A stretch of DNA of 64,000 nt. It comes from an uncultured Chloroflexia bacterium (GTDB taxonomy: Bacteria > Chloroflexota > Dehalococcoidia > UBA2979). The notes beneath the pieces are model-generated. The model searched no databases. It saw only the letters and a list, made by a program, of their open reading frames with translations, and had not been told where the DNA came from. Shown here piece after piece: positions 44,163 to 54,447 of the stretch. The stretch lies in the NCBI GenBank assembly GCA_963728205.1, contig CAVSIV010000002.1, positions 384,001 to 448,000 of the forward strand. The letters run 5' to 3'. Numbering within the stretch: position 1 is the first letter of the stretch; the number at the start of each line of letters is the position of its first letter. Made by a program: the position numbers and the translations under genes.

Positions 44163-44239
44163 ACATGTGAAGCAGGGTGCGAGCCGACCCGGGTCCCCCC
44201 AGCCTAACCCGTGCGCGGCGCGCCGAGGAGTCCACACCG

Positions 44240-44737
44240 ATGCGAATCCAGGTCGACGACGTCTTCAAGGCCTTCGACGGCGCTCTCGCGCTGATCGAGG
44301 ACGAGCGCCAACGCCAGACCTTCGAGCGGGTGCTCGCCGCGAGCCGCGATTCCGTGCAGCGCGCCATCGGCGACCTCGTGCGGCAGGTCGTCGACGACGT
44401 GAACGAGGTCGCCGGCGGCGTGCTCGCACTCGAGCTCGTCTACCAGCCGGACGGCCTCGAGGTGCGCGCCTCGACCGCCTCGCTCGAGGAGCCAATCGAG
44501 GACGAGGCGGCCTTCGGGTTCGACGCCGAGGACGTCGATCGCCTCACGCTGCGGCTCCCGGCGGAACTGAAGGACATCGCCGCGGCGGCGGCGGAGCAGG
44601 CCGGCATCTCGCTGAACACGTGGCTGACGCGCCTGGTGACGCGCGAGGCCGTGCAACGCACGCGCGGTCGCGGTCGCGCGCCGCGGGCGCAGCGCAGCGG
44701 CTCGAGTCAGAGCCTGAAGGGGTGGATCGGCGGCTAG
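44240..44737 (+). CDS. Ribbon-helix-helix DNA-binding protein (HicB-like annotation family)
   Basis: RLTLRLPAELK..AAAAEQAGISLNTWL RHH motif; C-terminal LKGW; GAGGAG RBS. Confidence 0.8.
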   Translation: MRIQVDDVFKAFDGALALIEDERQRQTFERVLAASRDSVQRAIGDLVRQVVDDVNEVAGGVLALELVYQPDGLEVRASTASLEEPIEDEAAFGFDAEDVDRLTLRLPAELKDIAAAAAEQAGISLNTWLTRLVTREAVQRTRGRGRAPRAQRSGSSQSLKGWIGG

Positions 44738-44753
44738 GCCCGTCGCACAAACC

Positions 44754-45675
44754 ATGCAGTACTACCGCACGATTGAGCGGACCTTCCGCGCGGGCGACCG
44801 GCCCGCCCTCAAGGTCTCGAACCGCCGCGGCGAGCTGATCGTCGTCGGCGAGGACCGCGACGACATCGCGTTCACGGCGCAGCTGTCCGTGCAGGCCGAC
44901 GACGAGGGCGCCGGCAACGAGCAGCTCGACCGCATCGGTCTCCCCATGAACGAGGCGGACGGCCGCGTCGAGATCGGACCACCCCAGTATGACGAGAGCG
45001 CGTTCTCCGGTATGACGCTGTTCGGCTTCCGCGTGCCGATGAGCTTTGGGTTCGGCACGCGCGTCGACATGCAGGTGCGCGTGCCGCGCGGCTGCACGGT
45101 GGAGGCGCTGAACCGCGCGGGCACGCTGCGCGTGACGGGGATCGAGGCGAAGGTCGCGCTCGATGCCCGCTCCGGCCGCGTCGAGCTGCGCGACGTCGGC
45201 GGGCCGGCGCACGTCGACGCACGCAGTGGGACGGTCGAGGTGCAGGACGTGCGCGGCGACGTCGAGGTCGACTCGCGGTCCGGCAAGGTCGAGATCGAGG
45301 ATGTCGGCGGCGCGCTGCGCGTCGCGAGCCGCTCGGGCACGGTGAACGTGCGCAAGGTGGGCGGCCGGGTCGCCGTCGAGAGTCGGTCCGGGCGCGTGCG
45401 CTTCGAGGACGTGGCCGGGCCGATTCGAGCTCGTGTCGGCGTCGGGCAGCGTGGAGTTCCGCGGCCGCGTCGCGCAGCCGATCTCGATGGAGGTGACGGC
45501 CGGCTCGGTGCGCCTCGCCGTGAGCCGCGACTCCGGGTTCTTCCTCGACGCGGAATCGCGCGCGGGCTCGGTGCGCTCCGAGCTGCCGGTTGGGTACCTC
45601 GAGCGTCCGCCGAAGGATGCGCCGACGGTGCGCGTGCGCACGCAGAGCGGCACGATCCGCGTGGTCGCGCTCTAG
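44754..45675 (+). CDS. DUF4097 beta-strand repeat (adhesin-like) protein; +1 frameshift near 45425
   Basis: About 18-aa repeats V--RSG-V-L-DVGG; ends VRTQSGTIRV; removing one T in GATTC at 45422-45426 restores the frame. Confidence 0.85.
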
Positions 45676-48129: not shown

Positions 48130-48203
48130 TGCCGGGTGGTGTAACGGTAGCACGGAGGACTTTGGATCCTTGAGTCTGGGTTCGAATCCCAGCCCGGCAT
48201 CCA
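48130..48203 (+). tRNA. tRNA-Gln(TTG)
   Basis: TGCCGGG acceptor, GAGGA-CTTTGGA-TCCTT anticodon arm, GGTTCGAATCC, CCA. Confidence 0.96.
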
Positions 48204-48281: not shown

Positions 48282-48357
48282 TGGCTCCCCGACGAGGACT
48301 CGAACCTCGAACCTAGCGGTTAACAGCCGCCCGCTCTACCGATTGAGCTATCGGGGA
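48282..48357 (-). tRNA. tRNA-Asn(GTT)
   Basis: TCCCCGATAGCTCAATCGGTAGAGC, GCGG-CTGTTAA-CCGC anticodon arm, GGTTCGAGTCC, CCA. Confidence 0.97.
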
Positions 48358-48536: not shown

Positions 48537-49916
48537 ATGCCCGATCGTTCGCAGCTCGTGCGCGTCGCCATCACCGAGATCCCGGACATTCACCTGCTGC
48601 CCGGCTGGGACCGCCAGTTCCAGGTCGAGCAGCCGATCGACCTCGAGATCCAGCGCGTCAACTCGCGCCAGGCGCACGCGTTGCTGTCGGGCGACCGCGG
48701 CACGCCCTACGACGTCGCGATCGTCGCCGAGGAGCCCACGCTCGCCGAGTACCCGACGGAGGCGTACGAGCGCGTCGTGATCGGCGCCGACACGTTCTCG
48801 CTGGTGATGTGCAGCGACGACGCGCACCCGCGGCTCGCGGCGCTTCGCGCGTGGGGACCGTACGTCCGCTACCCCGAGCTCAAGGACCTGCTCCTGCACC
48901 TCGGCGACCACCGCCTGCTGATGCGCGAGCGCGGCGCGGGGGTGAACGTCTACATCTTCGAGCACCTGCTCGGCGGGCTGGTCGCGGACGGGCGCATCGG
49001 GCCCGACGGGTGCGTGCTGCTCGAAGAGGAGCGCGCGAACGAGGCGCTCGTCGGCGGCGTGTCGGGCGGCGACGACCTCGTCGCGATCGTCCCCAACTCC
49101 GTGCTGTGGGACGTGACGGTCCCGCGCGGTCAGGTCGACGTCGTGCCGATCGTGCACGCGCCGTTCCGCCCGTACTTCATGCTGCGGCGCCGCGAGGGCG
49201 AGCTCGACAGCGCGCACGAGCGCGCGATCGGCGTGCTGTGGGACTACCTGCTCGACTACGTCGGCGCGCGGCGCGAGCGCTCGCAGCTCGGCGCCGACCG
49301 CGTGCCGGTGGCGCGCCGGCCGGAGGCGGTGCTGCTCGGCGTCGACATCGTGAACTTCACGCTGATGCGGCAGGAGCACCAGCGCACGGCGGTGCGGCTG
49401 CTGAACTCGCTGACGCAGCACGTGGTCGCGAGCATCGAGCCGGTGCGCCGCGCGCTGTGGACCGCGATCTCGACCGGCGACGGCCTGATCCTCGTGCTCG
49501 ACGGGGCGCTCGCCGCGACGCCGCTGTTCGACGCGATGATCGGGATCAACCTCGCGCTGCGGCAGCTGTTCGACACGCTGGGGCGCAACCTCGGGCTGGG
49601 CGGCGGCATCGGCGCGCGCATGGCGATGCACTCCGGGCCGGTGCTGACGGTGTACGACCCGGGGGGCGACCTCAACTTCGTGGGCCCCGGCGTGAACGTG
49701 CTGCAGCGGATCCTCGAGTTCGGGAACGCCGGCCAGGTGCTCGCAACGCACGAGGCCCTCGGCGCGCTGACCGGCGCCGACGGGGTCGGCGCGATGGCCG
49801 ACCAGGCGTGGTCCGGCTGGGACAAGCACGGCATCGAGTACCGGGTGCACGCGATCTCGGGCGAGGGCTTTGGCGACCCGACGCGCCCGGCGCGGCTGGA
49901 CCAGCGCTTCCGCTGA
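48537..49916 (+). CDS. LysR-type substrate-binding domain fused to class III nucleotidyl cyclase
   Basis: N-terminal LLP/NS/DVAIV/HP/RERGAG pattern of LysR effector domains without HTH; C-terminal DIVNF, TGDG, RMAMHSGPV, G-GVN-QR, GQVL. Confidence 0.8.
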   Translation: MPDRSQLVRVAITEIPDIHLLPGWDRQFQVEQPIDLEIQRVNSRQAHALLSGDRGTPYDVAIVAEEPTLAEYPTEAYERVVIGADTFSLVMCSDDAHPRLAALRAWGPYVRYPELKDLLLHLGDHRLLMRERGAGVNVYIFEHLLGGLVADGRIGPDGCVLLEEERANEALVGGVSGGDDLVAIVPNSVLWDVTVPRGQVDVVPIVHAPFRPYFMLRRREGELDSAHERAIGVLWDYLLDYVGARRERSQLGADRVPVARRPEAVLLGVDIVNFTLMRQEHQRTAVRLLNSLTQHVVASIEPVRRALWTAISTGDGLILVLDGALAATPLFDAMIGINLALRQLFDTLGRNLGLGGGIGARMAMHSGPVLTVYDPGGDLNFVGPGVNVLQRILEFGNAGQVLATHEALGALTGADGVGAMADQAWSGWDKHGIEYRVHAISGEGFGDPTRPARLDQRFR

Positions 49917-49946
49917 CCCGGCCCGCCGCGCTTCCGTGGCGCGCGG

Positions 49947-50756
49947 TCAGAGCGCGATCGTCATCCCGTCGTACGCCGCCTCGGTCGCCGCGAAGCGAGC
50001 GCGCGCCTGCTCGGCGATCTCGTCGATCTCGGCGTCTGCTCGGCGGGGGTCGTGGCTCGTGAGGACGAGGCGCCCGACGCCGGCCGCGATGGCGACCGCC
50101 GTCGCGTGCTCCCACGTGCTGTGGCCCCAGCCGGCGCGCGTCGTCGTGAACTCGCCCGGCGTGTACTGCGCGTCGTGCACGAGCACGCCCGCGCCGGCGG
50201 CGAGCGCCACCAGGCGCGCATCCGCGGCGGCGTCGCCCGGCTCCACGTCGGTGGCGAAGACGAGCGTCGTCGAACCCGCTGCGACGCGGTAGCCGGTGAC
50301 GCCGTCCGGGTGCGAGAGCGCCTCGTGATCGATCGCGAAGGGGCCCACCGCGAGGCGGTCCGGCAGGTCGACGAAGGTCTTGCGCGACGGCGTGTCGTCG
50401 AAGGCGACGGGAAACCAGGGCGGGCGGACGGGCCCGGCGAGCGCGTCGTGCAGCGAGAGCCCGGCGGGCGCGCGTCCGACAAAGGTGAGGTGCGCGCCCG
50501 CGTCGAGCAGTGGCTCGAAGAACGGCAGCCCCTGGATGTGATCCCAGTGGAAGTGGGTGAAGAGGATCGTGAAGTCGGTCCGCCCTGCGGTGTCCACGCT
50601 GAGCAGACCGGAGCCGGCGTCGATCAGCAGCACCGGCGCGCCGGTGCTGCTGATCTCCAGGCACGTCGTGTGGCCGCCGTACCGGGCGCTGGCGGGGCCG
50701 GAGACGGGCGAGGAGCCGCGGGTGCCGTGGATCGTGAGCTGCGCGGGCGTGGCCAC
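49947..50756 (-). CDS. MBL-fold metallo-hydrolase (putative cyclic-nucleotide phosphodiesterase)
   Basis: GTRGS-P, RYGGHTTC, DAGSG, THFHWDHIQG, HDAQY, WGHS; GTG after GGGAGG. Confidence 0.9.
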   Translation of the reverse strand: MATPAQLTIHGTRGSSPVSGPASARYGGHTTCLEISSTGAPVLLIDAGSGLLSVDTAGRTDFTILFTHFHWDHIQGLPFFEPLLDAGAHLTFVGRAPAGLSLHDALAGPVRPPWFPVAFDDTPSRKTFVDLPDRLAVGPFAIDHEALSHPDGVTGYRVAAGSTTLVFATDVEPGDAAADARLVALAAGAGVLVHDAQYTPGEFTTTRAGWGHSTWEHATAVAIAAGVGRLVLTSHDPRRADAEIDEIAEQARARFAATEAAYDGMTIAL

Positions 50757-50796
50757 GGTCCTCCCGTCGTCGCGCGGTGCGGGCACGCGTGGCCGT

Positions 50797-50826
50797 TTGA
50801 CGGCCGTTGGCGGCGGTCCCTAGTCT
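50797..50826 (+). promoter_or_regulatory. Sigma70-type promoter of the cNMP-binding gene
   Basis: TTGACG-18 nt-TAGTCT. Confidence 0.6.
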
Positions 50827-50859
50827 CCGCGCTCAAGCGCTGCTCGGACAAGGAGCTCG

Positions 50860-51315
50860 ATGATGGATGCCGCGCAGAAGGCGACGGCCCTGGCCGCGGT
50901 GCCGCTGTTCTCACAGGTGGGCCGGTCCGATCTCGAGCGCCTCGCGCGCGCGGCGGTCGAGCGGCACTTCGCGGCCGGCTCGACGATCGTCAAGGAGGGC
51001 GAGCGCGGCGTCGCCATGTTCATCATCGTCTCCGGCCAGGCCCAGGCGACGAAGGGCGAGACGAAGCTGGCCGAGTACGGCCCGGGCTCGTTCTTCGGCG
51101 ACCTGGCGCTGTTCGAGAGCTTCCCGCGCAGCGCCACGATCACGGCGACGAGCGACCTCGAGTGTCTCGCACTCACCGAGTGGGACTTCCAGTCGGAGAT
51201 CCGCGCGAACCCGGCCGTGGCGATCCAGCTGCTCAAGGCGATCGCGCGGCGGTTGCGCGACACCTCGGCGGAGCTCGCGGCGGCGCGCGGCGAAGGTCAG
51301 CCTCCGCTGGACTGA
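50860..51315 (+). CDS. Stand-alone cyclic nucleotide-binding domain protein
   Basis: VPLF, IVKEGE-G-MFII-SG, GSFFGDLAL-PRSATI phosphate-binding cassette; no HTH; AAGGAG RBS. Confidence 0.92.
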   Translation: MMDAAQKATALAAVPLFSQVGRSDLERLARAAVERHFAAGSTIVKEGERGVAMFIIVSGQAQATKGETKLAEYGPGSFFGDLALFESFPRSATITATSDLECLALTEWDFQSEIRANPAVAIQLLKAIARRLRDTSAELAAARGEGQPPLD

Positions 51316-51393
51316 GCGCGCCCACACCGGCCGCGCGAAGCGTGGCACGCGCGACACCGCCGCGCTCACACCGAGAACGAGAGGGACGAGCGC

Positions 51394-52011
51394 ATGGCTC
51401 CGCAGACGTACTACATCGAGCCGGTCGAGCCGGTGCTGCGGCGTTTCGTCGAGGACTTCCGCAACGTCGTCGCGCGCGAAGGTGAGGCGCCCGGGCTGCT
51501 CGACGCGCTGCGGGGGCCAACGGAGCGGCTGCTGGAGGACCCGACCTGGATCGCCGAGGCGTACCGCAAACCGGTGCCCGGCGCGACGGCCACCTGGGCC
51601 GTCTACCGGTCGCAGGACCCGGACCTCTGCATCTTCACGATGGTCGTGCCGCCGGGCGAGATGACGAAGGTGCACAACCACCTCACGAGCGGCTGGGTCG
51701 GCCTCGTGCAGGGCGGGCAGGTTGAGCGGATGTTCCGCCGCACCGATGACCGCTCACGGCCCGGCTACGCCGCGCTCGACCTCGTGTCCGAGACGAGCGT
51801 GGCGCTCGGCGAGCTCACGCCGCTGCAGTACCCGGACCACGACATCCACCAGGTGGTGACGACGTCGCGCGACGCCTCGGTATCACTGCACGTGCTCTGC
51901 AACGACCTGGGCACGGTCGAACGGCAGATGTTCGAACCGGAGGCGCACCGCGTGCAGGACTTCGTCTCCGGGTACACGAACGTGACGGGGCAGTCCGCGA
52001 TCGGTCGCTGA
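51394..52011 (+). CDS. Cysteine/thiol dioxygenase-like cupin
   Basis: VHNH, W-GLV-G, DIHQV, SVSLHV three-His cupin motifs. Confidence 0.8.
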   Translation: MAPQTYYIEPVEPVLRRFVEDFRNVVAREGEAPGLLDALRGPTERLLEDPTWIAEAYRKPVPGATATWAVYRSQDPDLCIFTMVVPPGEMTKVHNHLTSGWVGLVQGGQVERMFRRTDDRSRPGYAALDLVSETSVALGELTPLQYPDHDIHQVVTTSRDASVSLHVLCNDLGTVERQMFEPEAHRVQDFVSGYTNVTGQSAIGR

Positions 52012-52034
52012 GCGCAGCGCGGCGCGGGGAGGAG

Positions 52035-52394
52035 TCAGTCGTCGGGCAGCGCGTAGAAGCGCCGCACGGCGTCCTCCCAGGCAGTGTCCAGGAACCAGTC
52101 GACGCCGAGGTAGTCGAGCGTGCGCGCCATCATGCGCGGCAGCGTGTCCACGGCCGCGCCGTCGACGGCGTAGGGCGGCTCGCGACCGGGGAAGCACTCG
52201 CGGTGGCCCCACTCCCACGTGACGAGCGCCGGCGACGGCTCCGCGCCGGCCGCCACGGCGGCGCGGCGCCCGTCGACCAGGGCGACCGGCACGGAGAGCA
52301 GCCCCTCCGCGGGCGCGGCGAGCGGGCGGTCGCCGCAGGCGTCGCAGGCGCGCCAGCCCGCCATCGGCAGCGTGGTCGGGACGTCGTCGGCCAT
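52035..52394 (-). CDS. Hypothetical protein with CxxC and HxxC
   Basis: CDAC, WGHREC; coding-like GC3; follows the histidine kinase on the same strand. Confidence 0.65.
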   Translation of the reverse strand: MADDVPTTLPMAGWRACDACGDRPLAAPAEGLLSVPVALVDGRRAAVAAGAEPSPALVTWEWGHRECFPGREPPYAVDGAAVDTLPRMMARTLDYLGVDWFLDTAWEDAVRRFYALPDD

Positions 52395-52442: not shown

Positions 52443-54209
52443 TCAGTCTTCGTTGAGCAGGACCTCGCGGGTGAGCGGCAGCCGGACGACGAACTCCGCG
52501 CCGCCGCCGACGGGCTCGCGGAGGATGAGGTCGGCATGGAGTCGCGCGGCGATCAGCTGCGAGAGGTAGAGCCCGAGCCCCATCCCGCGCACCTTGCGCG
52601 AGGACTCGCCGCGCACGAAGCGGCCGAAGATGCTGGAGCGCAGCTCGGGGGCGACGCCGGGCCCGCGGTCGCGGACCGCGATGGTCGTCCGGCGGTCCTC
52701 GGCCGTCAGCGTGAGCGTGATGTGCGGCGCCGGGCCGCCGTGCTTCGCGGCGTTGTCGAGCAGGTTGCCGACGATCTGGCGAATGCGATCCGGGTCGGTG
52801 AGCGCGATGTGCGGGCCGTCGGGGTAGACGCGATCGACCCGCACGCTGGGGAAGCGGCGCAGCATCGCCTGCACCTCCTCGTCGAGCAGGTGGCGCAGCT
52901 CGACGGGCTCCGGCGCCAGCTCGACGCGGCCGGACTCGAGGTCCGCGAGGTTCAGCAGCGTGTCGAGCGTCGTGCGCATGCGCCGCGCCTCGGCGGCGAG
53001 CGTTTCGATGTCCGCCCGCGTCTGCTCGTCGAACTGGTCGGCACGGCGGGAGAGCCGGTAGGAGTACCCGAGCACGCTCGTGAGCGGCGTGCGCAACTCG
53101 TGCGAGACGGACGAGAGGAACGCCTCGCGCACGTCCGCGGTCTCCTGCGCGAGCCGGTAGTTGCGCGCGTTGTCGACGGCGAATGCGGCGCGCGAGGCGA
53201 GCTCCATACCGAGGGTGATGTCCTCGTGCCCATAGCGGTGCTGCGGGTGGCTCGACACCATCTCGATCACGCCGATCGTGCGGCCGCGCGCGACCATCGG
53301 CAGCAGGAGCGCGGAGCGGATCGCGAGGATCTCGAGCAGCTCGCGGTGCTCGGCGTCGCGGGCCTGCGTCTCGAGCGTGCCGGAGGGGATGGTCGAGTAA
53401 ACCTCCGGCTGGCCGGTGCGGATCACGTTCTGCAGGCCCTGGCGGGTGCCGCGCGCCTCGCCGTAGTCGCGGCGCAGGCGACGCACGCGCTCGACGAGCC
53501 GGGGGTCGCGGTGCGCGATCTCCAGCTCCCGGACGTTGCCGTCGTCGTCGACGAGGTGCACGGCCGCCCAGTCGGCCATGCGCCGCACGAGCAGCTGCGC
53601 GAAGGCGCGCAGGGTCTCCTCGTACTCGAGCGAGTTGCTGAGGAGCGCCGTGGCCTCCGAGAGCAGGTCCTGCGCGCTCGCGTGCTGGCGGAGGTGGATC
53701 GCTGCGCCGAGCACGTTCGCAACCGCCTGCAGGAAGTTGCCGTCATCCTGCGTGAAGGTGCGGCGCTCCCGGGTGTGCGCGCCGACGACGCCGAACGACT
53801 TGCGCGGGCCGCGGATCAACACGCTGATGCCGGAGACGACGTCGTGATCGAGCAGCAGCTGCGCGCTGTGGAAGCGCCGCTCGCTTGCGAGATCCTCCAC
53901 CATCACGGGCTGATCCGAGGCGAGCGCATAGCCGGCCTGCGAGTCCAGCCCGCCCGGGAGGATGGCGGAGCCGACCAGCCCCTCGTGCCAGCCGTAGCCG
54001 GCGCGCAGCAGGAGCTCCTGGCTTCCCGGCAAGCGCTGGAGAATCTTCACGAACTCGACGTCGAGGTGGTTCGCAATCAGGCGCGCCGCGTCGTTGAGGA
54101 ACTCGTCGAGCTCGGGCGTCGTGAGCGCCCGTTCACCGAGCTCGGCCACGAGGGCTTGCTGCCGCAAGCGACGCTCGAGGACGCTGTCGGCGAGGCGGGA
54201 GTCGGCCAT
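52443..54209 (-). CDS. Cytoplasmic GAF-GAF sensor histidine kinase
   Basis: Two GAF domains, SHELRTPL H-box, NLLDNAAKH, D-GPG, GMGLGL. Confidence 0.93.
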   Translation of the reverse strand: MADSRLADSVLERRLRQQALVAELGERALTTPELDEFLNDAARLIANHLDVEFVKILQRLPGSQELLLRAGYGWHEGLVGSAILPGGLDSQAGYALASDQPVMVEDLASERRFHSAQLLLDHDVVSGISVLIRGPRKSFGVVGAHTRERRTFTQDDGNFLQAVANVLGAAIHLRQHASAQDLLSEATALLSNSLEYEETLRAFAQLLVRRMADWAAVHLVDDDGNVRELEIAHRDPRLVERVRRLRRDYGEARGTRQGLQNVIRTGQPEVYSTIPSGTLETQARDAEHRELLEILAIRSALLLPMVARGRTIGVIEMVSSHPQHRYGHEDITLGMELASRAAFAVDNARNYRLAQETADVREAFLSSVSHELRTPLTSVLGYSYRLSRRADQFDEQTRADIETLAAEARRMRTTLDTLLNLADLESGRVELAPEPVELRHLLDEEVQAMLRRFPSVRVDRVYPDGPHIALTDPDRIRQIVGNLLDNAAKHGGPAPHITLTLTAEDRRTTIAVRDRGPGVAPELRSSIFGRFVRGESSRKVRGMGLGLYLSQLIAARLHADLILREPVGGGAEFVVRLPLTREVLLNED

Positions 54210-54447
54210 CGGGCGTCCTTCCTCAGCGCTGCGACCTTTCGGGAGGATACCCCCTGCGATCACCTTCGCCGATGGCACGAATCGCGAGCATGCGCGCGGA
54301 TGGACCAGCGATGAGGACCCTCATCGCCGTACGGACAGCCATCGGGGCTGAGCCGTGGGACCGCTTCTCGCGCCGGCTGGAGGAGCCGGGGCGCGTGGTG
54401 CGGCGAATCGCGTCCGAGCGCGCCCTCGGGCCGGCCTGAGCGGGCCG

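Follow-up and report, generated by a model that had tools for sequence, protein, structure and literature searches.

What kind of system is encoded by the cyclic nucleotide genes that adjoin a tRNA-Asn gene in an uncultured Chloroflexia bacterium? The window that we analysed, a 64,000-nucleotide stretch (72% GC) of contig CAVSIV010000002.1 (GCA_963728205.1), carries at this site genes for a 459-residue sensor-cyclase (48537..49916, plus strand), a 279-residue hydrolase of the metallo-β-lactamase (MBL) fold (49947..50786, minus strand) and a 151-residue stand-alone cyclic nucleotide-binding domain (CNBD) protein (50860..51315, plus strand), and beyond them a gene for a three-His cupin (51394..52011, plus strand). 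We propose that the first three genes are functionally linked and form a cassette in which, as far as can be judged from sequence, the cyclase would write, the MBL protein would erase and the CNBD protein would read a cyclic nucleoside monophosphate (cNMP); we put the probability of this reading at about 0.65.

An earlier, sequence-only reading of this DNA had described four adjacent genes beside tRNA-Asn, encoding a class III cyclase, an MBL protein with an HxHxDH motif, a cNMP-binding protein that lacks a helix-turn-helix (HTH) domain, and a three-His cupin. Both the arrangement and the four identities are borne out. Open reading frames (ORFs), tRNA calls and codon-position GC agree on the arrangement; the GC content at third codon positions is 0.93-0.97 in all four ORFs, matching other credible genes of the window. 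The cyclase start at 48537 agrees with the database protein P0001 and with the homologues. The cyclase and MBL genes are convergent, with 30 bp between their stop codons, and the MBL and CNBD genes are divergent across a gap of 73 bp. A promoter and terminator scan returned no promoters and a single terminator, located outside the module.

Cyclic nucleotide genes recur beside relatives of the MBL hydrolase

Is the proximity of these genes peculiar to one genome? The MBL gene is present in 7 of 61 related genomes, its own included, and all five family-level relatives with readable context have a CNBD gene, a cyclase gene or both near it. The locus comprises a Fer4-cyclase, the MBL protein and a free CNBD in genome G029; a Fer4-cyclase, a Rieske-CNBD fusion and the MBL protein in G019; and a CNBD-NTE_Ploop protein and the MBL protein in G012. 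G014 and G033 share a fourth arrangement, namely a SnoaL-cyclase, a PAS protein, the MBL protein and a GAF kinase.

A wider scan drew on one genome per species and kept the best 80 of 478 MBL relatives. At 17 of these 80 loci a CNBD or cyclase ORF lies within 600 bp of the MBL gene, and at 3 more such an ORF is found only farther away; among the 11 loci closest to the window's, nine have such a neighbour. The screen for neighbours used profiles built in this analysis, and the relatives are not independent of one another. Pfam confirmed all 16 of the adjacent ORFs submitted to it, and the confirmed neighbours include free CNBDs, a CNBD-NTE-patatin protein and cyclases of the CHASE2, REC, Reg_prop and AAA/TPR types. 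When distances are taken between domains across the 80 loci, 15 lie within 1.5 kb and 9 beyond (density ratio about 4, binomial p about 1e-3), a test with less force than the gene-level count, since in long multidomain neighbours the cyclase domain lies far off.

The association is concentrated in one part of the family. A FastTree phylogeny of 86 MBL domains contains 22 rows with an adjacent CNBD or cyclase, and the clade that holds the window's protein (SH-like support 99), which spans several phyla, accounts for 13 such rows out of its 17; the four rows of this clade without a neighbour come from short contigs or from the end of a contig. Gene fusions tell a similar story. For example, a metagenome-assembled genome of Methylomirabilia encodes MBL (PF12706), REC, CNBD and GGDEF domains in a single ORF (locus L087, 5809-8220, plus strand), a fusion that would join cNMP hydrolysis and sensing to the synthesis of cyclic di-GMP. 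Likewise, six loci of one clade encode MBL-(REC)-GAF fusions of about 600-620 residues, which recall the GAF-regulated phosphodiesterases (PDEs) of eukaryotes.

We also note the company that the MBL-CNBD pair keeps in two of the family-level relatives. In G029 (locus L012, 3569-9642) and G019 (locus L013, 5107-9437) the pair is set among Fe-S and redox proteins. These comprise a cyclase fused to Fer4, a CNBD fused to a Rieske domain, a ferritin-like protein and one with Fer4_19 and CDGSH domains, a context that suggests cNMP signalling linked to redox state or iron.

The MBL protein is a candidate atypical class-II phosphodiesterase

What is the MBL protein likely to hydrolyse? It matches PF12706 (E 1.2e-13; 51.6 bits against a cut-off of 27) and carries the signature [T/S]HXHXDH as THFHWDH at residues 77-83. 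Residues H78, H80, D82, H83, H159, D180 and H222 of the metal motifs, among others, are invariant in 34 relatives. The best full-length relative of solved structure is YhfI of B. subtilis (6kns), which phmmer aligns to residues 14-248 with an E-value of 4.5e-7 and which a profile of the 34 sequences matches in a single stretch at 2.4e-17; sequence identity to YhfI is only 21-23%. The AlphaFold2 (AF2) model of the MBL protein has a mean predicted local distance difference test score (pLDDT) of 95, and a Foldseek search with this model places YhfI structures at ranks 1-6 (E 6e-17; template-modelling score 0.77-0.81), followed by BA1088 and then RNase Z, with yeast PDE1 and Apyc1 lower. The position of Apyc1 in this search is rank 39 (7u2s, E 2e-10).

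According to excerpts of Thomson et al. (PMC9293780), Rv1339 of M. tuberculosis, YhfI and the CpdA of C. glutamicum are atypical class-II PDEs, a group defined by PF12706, the [T/S]HXHXDH signature and a position near RNase Z, and the excerpted text of Hobbs et al. (PMC9117128) gives cAMP and cGMP as the substrate preference of YhfI. The window's MBL protein conforms to the sequence definitions of this group and is thus a candidate PDE. It shares with YhfI, Rv1339 and CpdA the PF12706 domain, the signature and a length of about 250-280 residues; the direct comparison of sequence and structure was made with YhfI, and the likeness to Rv1339 and CpdA is taken from their published descriptions.

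An alternative is that the three genes lie together by chance, that the MBL protein acts on RNA or another phosphodiester in the manner of RNase Z or PhnP, and that the CNBD-fold protein binds a ligand other than a nucleotide. The family profile does rank RNase Z/BN slightly over YhfI (2cbn, 4e-21, against 6kns, 2e-17), the NCBIfam matches of the MBL protein are weak and below threshold, and many CNBDs of the CRP/FNR type do not bind cNMP. The alignment to 2cbn, however, is broken into two pieces that skip chain residues 155-219 and is not continuous through the tRNA-binding arm, because the MBL family lacks roughly 45 intervening residues. Identification as RNase Z/BN was rejected, the NCBIfam models for these enzymes scoring 51.7-53.7 bits against cut-offs of 252-293, and it is YhfI that supplies the top structural matches. 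Finally, cNMP genes are enriched near the MBL genes, fusions to CNBD and GAF domains exist, and the cupin loci that serve as a control yield none in 19. We therefore regard chance juxtaposition as decidedly unlikely.

A class III cyclase with a LysR-type sensor domain

The sensor-cyclase consists of an N-terminal sensor domain (residues 1-245; 48537..49271, plus strand) and a C-terminal catalytic domain (residues about 258-455; 49308..49901, plus strand). Its AF2 model has a pLDDT of 87.9 and a predicted template-modelling score of 0.89. In phmmer searches of the PDB the protein matches the guanylate cyclase domain 3et6 (E 1.6e-6), and in VIA-align superpositions of the AF2 model residues 258-447 align with Cya2 (2w01) over 179 residues with a Z score of 17.7 and a root-mean-square deviation (rmsd) of 2.8; 3et6 (Z 17.3), CyaB (3r5g, Z 17.2) and Rv1264 (1y10, Z 17.2) follow closely. 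The protein has 726 matches at E<=1e-3 among 1.84 billion representative sequences, nearly all of them to residues about 264-455, and PF00211 is present in 13 of the 15 matches that were scanned. The C-terminal half is a class III cyclase domain, despite a Pfam score of its own that falls below threshold.

The catalytic residue set is present. Asp270 and Asp315 correspond to the metal ligands, Arg361 to the phosphate-binding residue, and Asn387 and Arg391 to the transition-state residues, roles that we assigned by alignment to 3et6 and from the known spacing of these residues. All five are invariant in five full-length homologues, and they are retained in 143-152 of the 152 nearest cyclase domains. 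By these sequence features the enzyme looks active. The 152 related domains make up a large class III subfamily in which fusion to AAA/TPR, NB-ARC or kinase-FHA modules is common.

The sensor domain, which has no Pfam match of its own, adopts in the model the fold of the effector-binding domains of LysR-type regulators. VIA-align superposes it on BenM, OxyR, RipR and ACIAD0746 with Z scores of 18.4-18.6 and rmsd values of 2.5-2.7 over 199-208 residues, Foldseek relates it to LysR-type effector-binding domains at an E-value of 2e-11, and the corresponding regions of the homologues P0006, P0007 and L016 (293-730) score with PF03466. This sensor is rare: only 3 other clusters match it among the 1.84 billion representatives, and the full-length architecture occurs in 5 proteins out of 5.8 billion, the window's included. 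The homologues P0004 and P0005, encoded on contigs of 160 kb and 521 kb, share 52-54% identity with the window's cyclase. At locus L016, in genome G032, the LysR-substrate-like domain (293-730) and a PF00211 cyclase (808-1485) are encoded by two adjacent ORFs, an arrangement that reflects either a splitting of the sensor-cyclase or a frameshift in a copy of it.

Which nucleotide would this cyclase make? The two positions that specify the base are Ile311 and Asn380, and the subfamily shows the same tendency, with Leu or Ile at the first position in 132 and Asn at the second in 141 of the 152 nearest domains. A Gln/Asn pair occupies these positions in Rv0386. A base-reading pair of Ile/Asn leaves the specificity uncertain, so that the product cannot be read from the sequence, and the suggestion of the sequence-only reading that the messenger is possibly not cAMP is compatible with this pair.

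A stand-alone cyclic nucleotide-binding domain protein

The CNBD protein has PF00027 (E 5.3e-19; 68.4 bits against 27.5) as its sole Pfam domain and aligns end to end with the CNBD of MloK1 (4muv, E 2e-19). Its phosphate-binding cassette reads FGDLAL...PRSAT, and the Arg of this cassette, Arg90, is invariant in 12 sequences that include the CNBDs adjacent to MBL genes. No HTH_Crp_2 domain was found in its 151 residues, and the CRP model of NCBIfam reaches 44 of the 266 bits that its cut-off requires; the missing C-terminal HTH and the low CRP score together rule out a transcription factor of the CRP/FNR type. Complex prediction for the MBL and CNBD proteins gave a score of 0.00 in two runs, a result that counts neither for nor against their binding.

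The biology of Pycsar and Apyc1, as excerpts of one report describe it (PMC9117128), likewise brings together a cyclase of the class III type, a reader with a CNBD and a cNMP phosphodiesterase of the MBL fold. Could the window encode an anti-phage system of the Pycsar kind, in which a pyrimidine cNMP cyclase signals to a CNBD effector? The non-canonical specificity residues of the cyclase would fit such a system, as would the tRNA-adjacent location and patchy distribution of the genes, and the CNBD segment of PADLOC's PycTIR model matches the CNBD protein (E 3.5e-15). The cyclase, on the other hand, matches no PADLOC model at E<=0.01, PycC included, and no defence-system call was returned. Moreover, the CNBD protein, a single domain, has neither a TIR nor a membrane effector part, a resident phosphodiesterase would undo a signal for abortive infection, and the neighbours at related loci are sensory and regulatory proteins. 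We consider a defence function of this type extremely improbable.

The window holds the only cyclase and the only MBL protein of their kinds detected in the genome

How well does the cyclase belong with the other two genes? A PF00211 scan of the source genome, which is 89% complete, returned 0 cyclases and missed that of the window too, and a profile of the cyclase subfamily found one ORF at E<=1e-3 genome-wide, the window's. Similarly, the MBL profile found one ORF at E<=1e-3, again that of the window. PF00027 has six matches in the genome, of which four were scanned and proved to be three CRP-type regulators and one CNBD-DUF2225 protein; the genome also encodes one CYTH protein. Among 24 family-level genomes searched for both families, MBL occurs in 4, all of which are among the 6 with PF00211 cyclases, a co-occurrence that is descriptive only because kin are not independent.

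These results bear on the possibility that only the MBL-CNBD pair is functional and that the cyclase is an unrelated neighbour. Adjacency to a CNBD is indeed the commonest arrangement, with 13 CNBD-only and 8 cyclase-only rows on the tree of 86 MBL domains, and the closest homologue of the cyclase is found in a different context. The cyclase of the window is nevertheless the sole cyclase domain detected in its genome. Neither the cyclase nor the MBL protein (E<=1e-10) was found in three genomes of the same genus, where the best CNBD match is only 33% identical, and cyclase genes of other types abut members of the MBL clade at seven loci. Thus, we think it unlikely that the pair works without the cyclase. 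The proposal of a writer, an eraser and a reader for one messenger, which the sequence-only reading had made for the locus, is supported for the trio, with CNBD or cyclase neighbours in 13 of 17 rows of the MBL clade, fusions to CNBD and GAF domains, and a cyclase and an MBL protein that are each the only one of its kind detected in the genome.

The cupin gene lies outside the module

The cupin is homologous to 3-mercaptopropionate, cysteine and mercaptosuccinate dioxygenases (E 5e-12 to 7e-10). Its best matches are 6xb9 and 3uss (E 5e-12, residues 15-196), and His94, His96 and His152 fall on their iron ligands, so that it shares three iron-binding His residues with the thiol dioxygenases for cysteine (CDO) and 3-mercaptopropionate (MDO). 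No Pfam family matches it even at an E-value of 10.

It had been suggested that this protein is the output of the signalling module or an enzyme that modifies its ligand, and in such a four-gene module, co-transcribed with the CNBD gene, the cupin could act on the ligand or the messenger. Its gene shares a strand with the CNBD gene and starts 79 bp past the CNBD stop codon, the gap holds no terminator-like site, and iron and redox proteins, as described above, accompany the MBL genes of relatives. Its conserved partners, though, are a tRNA pair and a small ORF. Of 36 family-level genomes, 13 have a cupin orthologue (59-80% identity), and in 12 of these 13 no CNBD, MBL or cyclase gene was found within 1.5 kb. 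None of the 3.6-kb cupin loci examined within this taxonomic family, 19 in all, has a CNBD, cyclase or MBL gene, and conversely the other fetched MBL and cyclase loci (L002-L004 and L006-L098) are all without a cupin homologue. Genome G019 has both the cupin and the MBL-CNBD pair, on separate contigs. Four relatives (L102, L104, L106 and L109) have the cupin directly beside the tRNA-Asn/tRNA-Gln pair, and in a further one (L101) a GDSL lipase gene intervenes. We conclude that the cupin is an older resident and an ancestral neighbour of the tRNA pair, not a member of the module; membership in a four-gene module is very improbable, and the role proposed for the cupin is not upheld.

These observations also correct the borders of the module. 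The tRNA pair, called by ARAGORN, consists in the window of tRNA-Gln (ttg; 48130..48203, plus strand) and tRNA-Asn (gtt; 48282..48357, minus strand). Ancestrally this pair adjoined the cupin gene on its left, and tRNA-Asn is now the left border of the three-gene cassette. The trio, at about 48.4-51.35 kb, fills the slot between tRNA and cupin, since the cupins of relatives sit beside the tRNA pair without signalling genes. Insertion of the cassette into this slot is the parsimonious reading, not a demonstrated event.

On the right, the cupin is convergent with orf119 (52035..52394, minus strand), a conserved 119-residue ORF without a Pfam family. Orf119 accompanies the cupin in L100, L101 and L106 (54-57% identity by tblastn), and the cupin and this Cys-containing ORF (51394-52394) thus form a conserved pair near tRNA-Gln and tRNA-Asn.

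Evidence that weighs against a linked cassette

Several observations count against the proposal that the cyclase, the MBL protein and the CNBD protein form one cassette, and we gather them here. The first concern the individual proteins. PF00211 recognises the cyclase only below its cut-off (E 0.074; 13.1 against 21.9 bits), and NCBIfam has no match to it. The base-specifying pair Ile311/Asn380 is neither the Lys/Asp of enzymes that use ATP nor the Glu/Cys of those that use GTP. The NCBIfam model NF041851 ("cyclic nucleotide-degrading phosphodiesterase") gives the MBL protein 40.7 bits against a cut-off of 400, and because this score is so far below the cut-off the protein is not an equivalog of that family. 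In addition, the ribose-binding Glu, present in 11 of 12 partner CNBDs, is replaced by Asp in the CNBD protein.

Other points concern gene context. On the MBL tree, 64 of 86 rows lack a CNBD or cyclase ORF next to the MBL gene. In most relatives the MBL and CNBD genes are co-directional; in the window they are divergent, an orientation shared by locus L067. The cyclase occurs in 1 of 60 related genomes, and there as a partial match only. A search for its relatives gave 16 pattern matches in genome contigs, of which 0 were confirmed, and two short contigs from metagenomes. These two (L003 and L004) carry a homologue of 70% identity followed by a gene for a luciferase-like monooxygenase, and neither an MBL nor a CNBD gene is found in the 0.7-0.95 kb visible beside the homologue. 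By this evidence, which covers one organism, the pairing is not conserved within the cyclase family. The sequence-only reading had proposed a neighbourhood search from the cyclase; taken alone, that search speaks against conserved linkage, whereas the loci of the MBL relatives recurrently include CNBD or cyclase genes.

The third group concerns the history of the locus. The tRNA order is Gln, Asn in the window and Asn, Gln in relatives, an inversion which indicates that the locus was rearranged as well as expanded. Around the cassette we found no integrase and no att-like direct repeats, only short GC-rich chance repeats, and across it there is no compositional break.

A model for the cassette and its relation to known systems

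We propose the following model. A metabolite bound in the cleft of the LysR-type domain would switch a cytosolic cyclase dimer on or off. The product would be a 3',5'-cNMP, most likely cAMP, which the MBL enzyme would hydrolyse and the CNBD protein would read. The CNBD protein must act through a partner because it has no output domain. It may be a partner that regulates the PDE, with feedback in which the substrate activates its own breakdown, as a split form of the Dictyostelium enzymes GbpA and GbpB, or it may have another target. Beyond this locus the genome encodes three CRP-type regulators and a CNBD-DUF2225 protein, which might be additional outputs.

What recommends the PDE as the leading candidate for the partner is the conserved adjacency, the L087 fusion and the precedent of GbpA/GbpB. 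As excerpts of PMC11988041 describe them, GbpA and GbpB (PdeD and PdeE) are class IIb MBL PDEs activated by their own two CNBDs. Like the locus in the window, they combine an MBL-type PDE with cNMP-binding domains, and as far as these excerpts go they offer a precedent for hydrolysis activated by product or substrate. Unlike the fused GbpA and GbpB, the window has its MBL protein and one CNBD on separate, divergent genes; the fused bacterial form is that of L087. An equally fair account of the adjacency is co-expression of reader and eraser, because adjacent readers in relatives sometimes carry Rieske or patatin domains.

A bolder version of the model holds that the locus encodes a two-subunit, messenger-activated PDE with the free CNBD as allosteric subunit, which together with a LysR-type cyclase that may make a nucleotide other than cAMP constitutes a portable 3-kb cassette able to install cNMP signalling in a genome that has no cyclase; the arrangement would then be the split counterpart, and possibly the forerunner, of GbpA/GbpB. 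We find this version doubtful as a whole and offer it tentatively.

How much of this has been described before? All of the component families are known. The sequence-only reading did not recognise the locus as a described system, which needs qualification: excerpts of PMC9293780 place proteins such as this MBL hydrolase in the atypical class-II PDE group, and a CNBD-governed MBL PDE is known in Dictyostelium from the excerpted PMC11988041. What stands is that open-access keyword searches found no description of the conserved pairing of PDE, CNBD and cyclase, or of a bacterial MBL-PDE/CNBD operon, which does not show its absence from print. YhfI, Rv1339 and CpdA appear in the excerpts of PMC9293780 as stand-alone housekeeping PDEs, whereas the MBL clade of the window is found beside CNBD and cyclase genes. 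The window's cyclase shares its cyclase-homology fold with Rv1264, CyaB and Cya2, and likewise all of the metal and transition-state residues. It differs from canonical class III enzymes in its sensor, an effector-binding domain of the LysR type with the type 2 periplasmic-binding-protein fold, and in having Ile/Asn where these have Lys/Asp or Glu/Cys. The new elements are the LysR-type sensor on a cyclase, the Ile/Asn pocket of the subfamily, the pairing, across phyla, of atypical class-II PDEs with cyclases and with CNBD and GAF partners, and an apparent cassette-like gain.

Atypical class-II PDEs have been recognised only recently, via Rv1339, and here one clade of them is linked, in several phyla, to proteins for reading and making cNMP. 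The clade suggests how the hydrolysis of cNMP may be controlled in bacteria and provides a candidate split analogue of the cNMP-activated MBL PDEs of eukaryotes. The window itself would represent a minimal, transferable set for making, breaking and reading a cyclic nucleotide, with a metabolite-type sensor domain new to cyclases, in which the cupin next door is a bystander.

Other features of the window and of related loci

Two genes past the cassette lies a histidine kinase of GAF-GAF-HisKA-HATPase architecture (52443..54278, minus strand), and GAF kinases adjoin the MBL gene in G014 and G033 as well. Upstream of the region, at 44177-45675 on the plus strand, a HicB-like ORF is followed by an ORF with a DUF4097 ("toastrack") domain.

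Finally, we note two other settings in which relatives of the MBL protein are found. In a cluster of 22 loci, mostly from Myxococcota, the MBL gene is followed by a regulator of GAF-sigma54-activator-HTH_8 architecture (assigned by Pfam on the representative L058, 5925-8318). A distant MBL clade from Ilumatobacteraceae and other Acidimicrobiia, represented by eight loci, is without cNMP genes and has a context of its own, in which an alpha/beta-hydrolase-like ORF precedes the MBL gene and genes for prolyl oligopeptidase, flavin reductase and MauE follow it.

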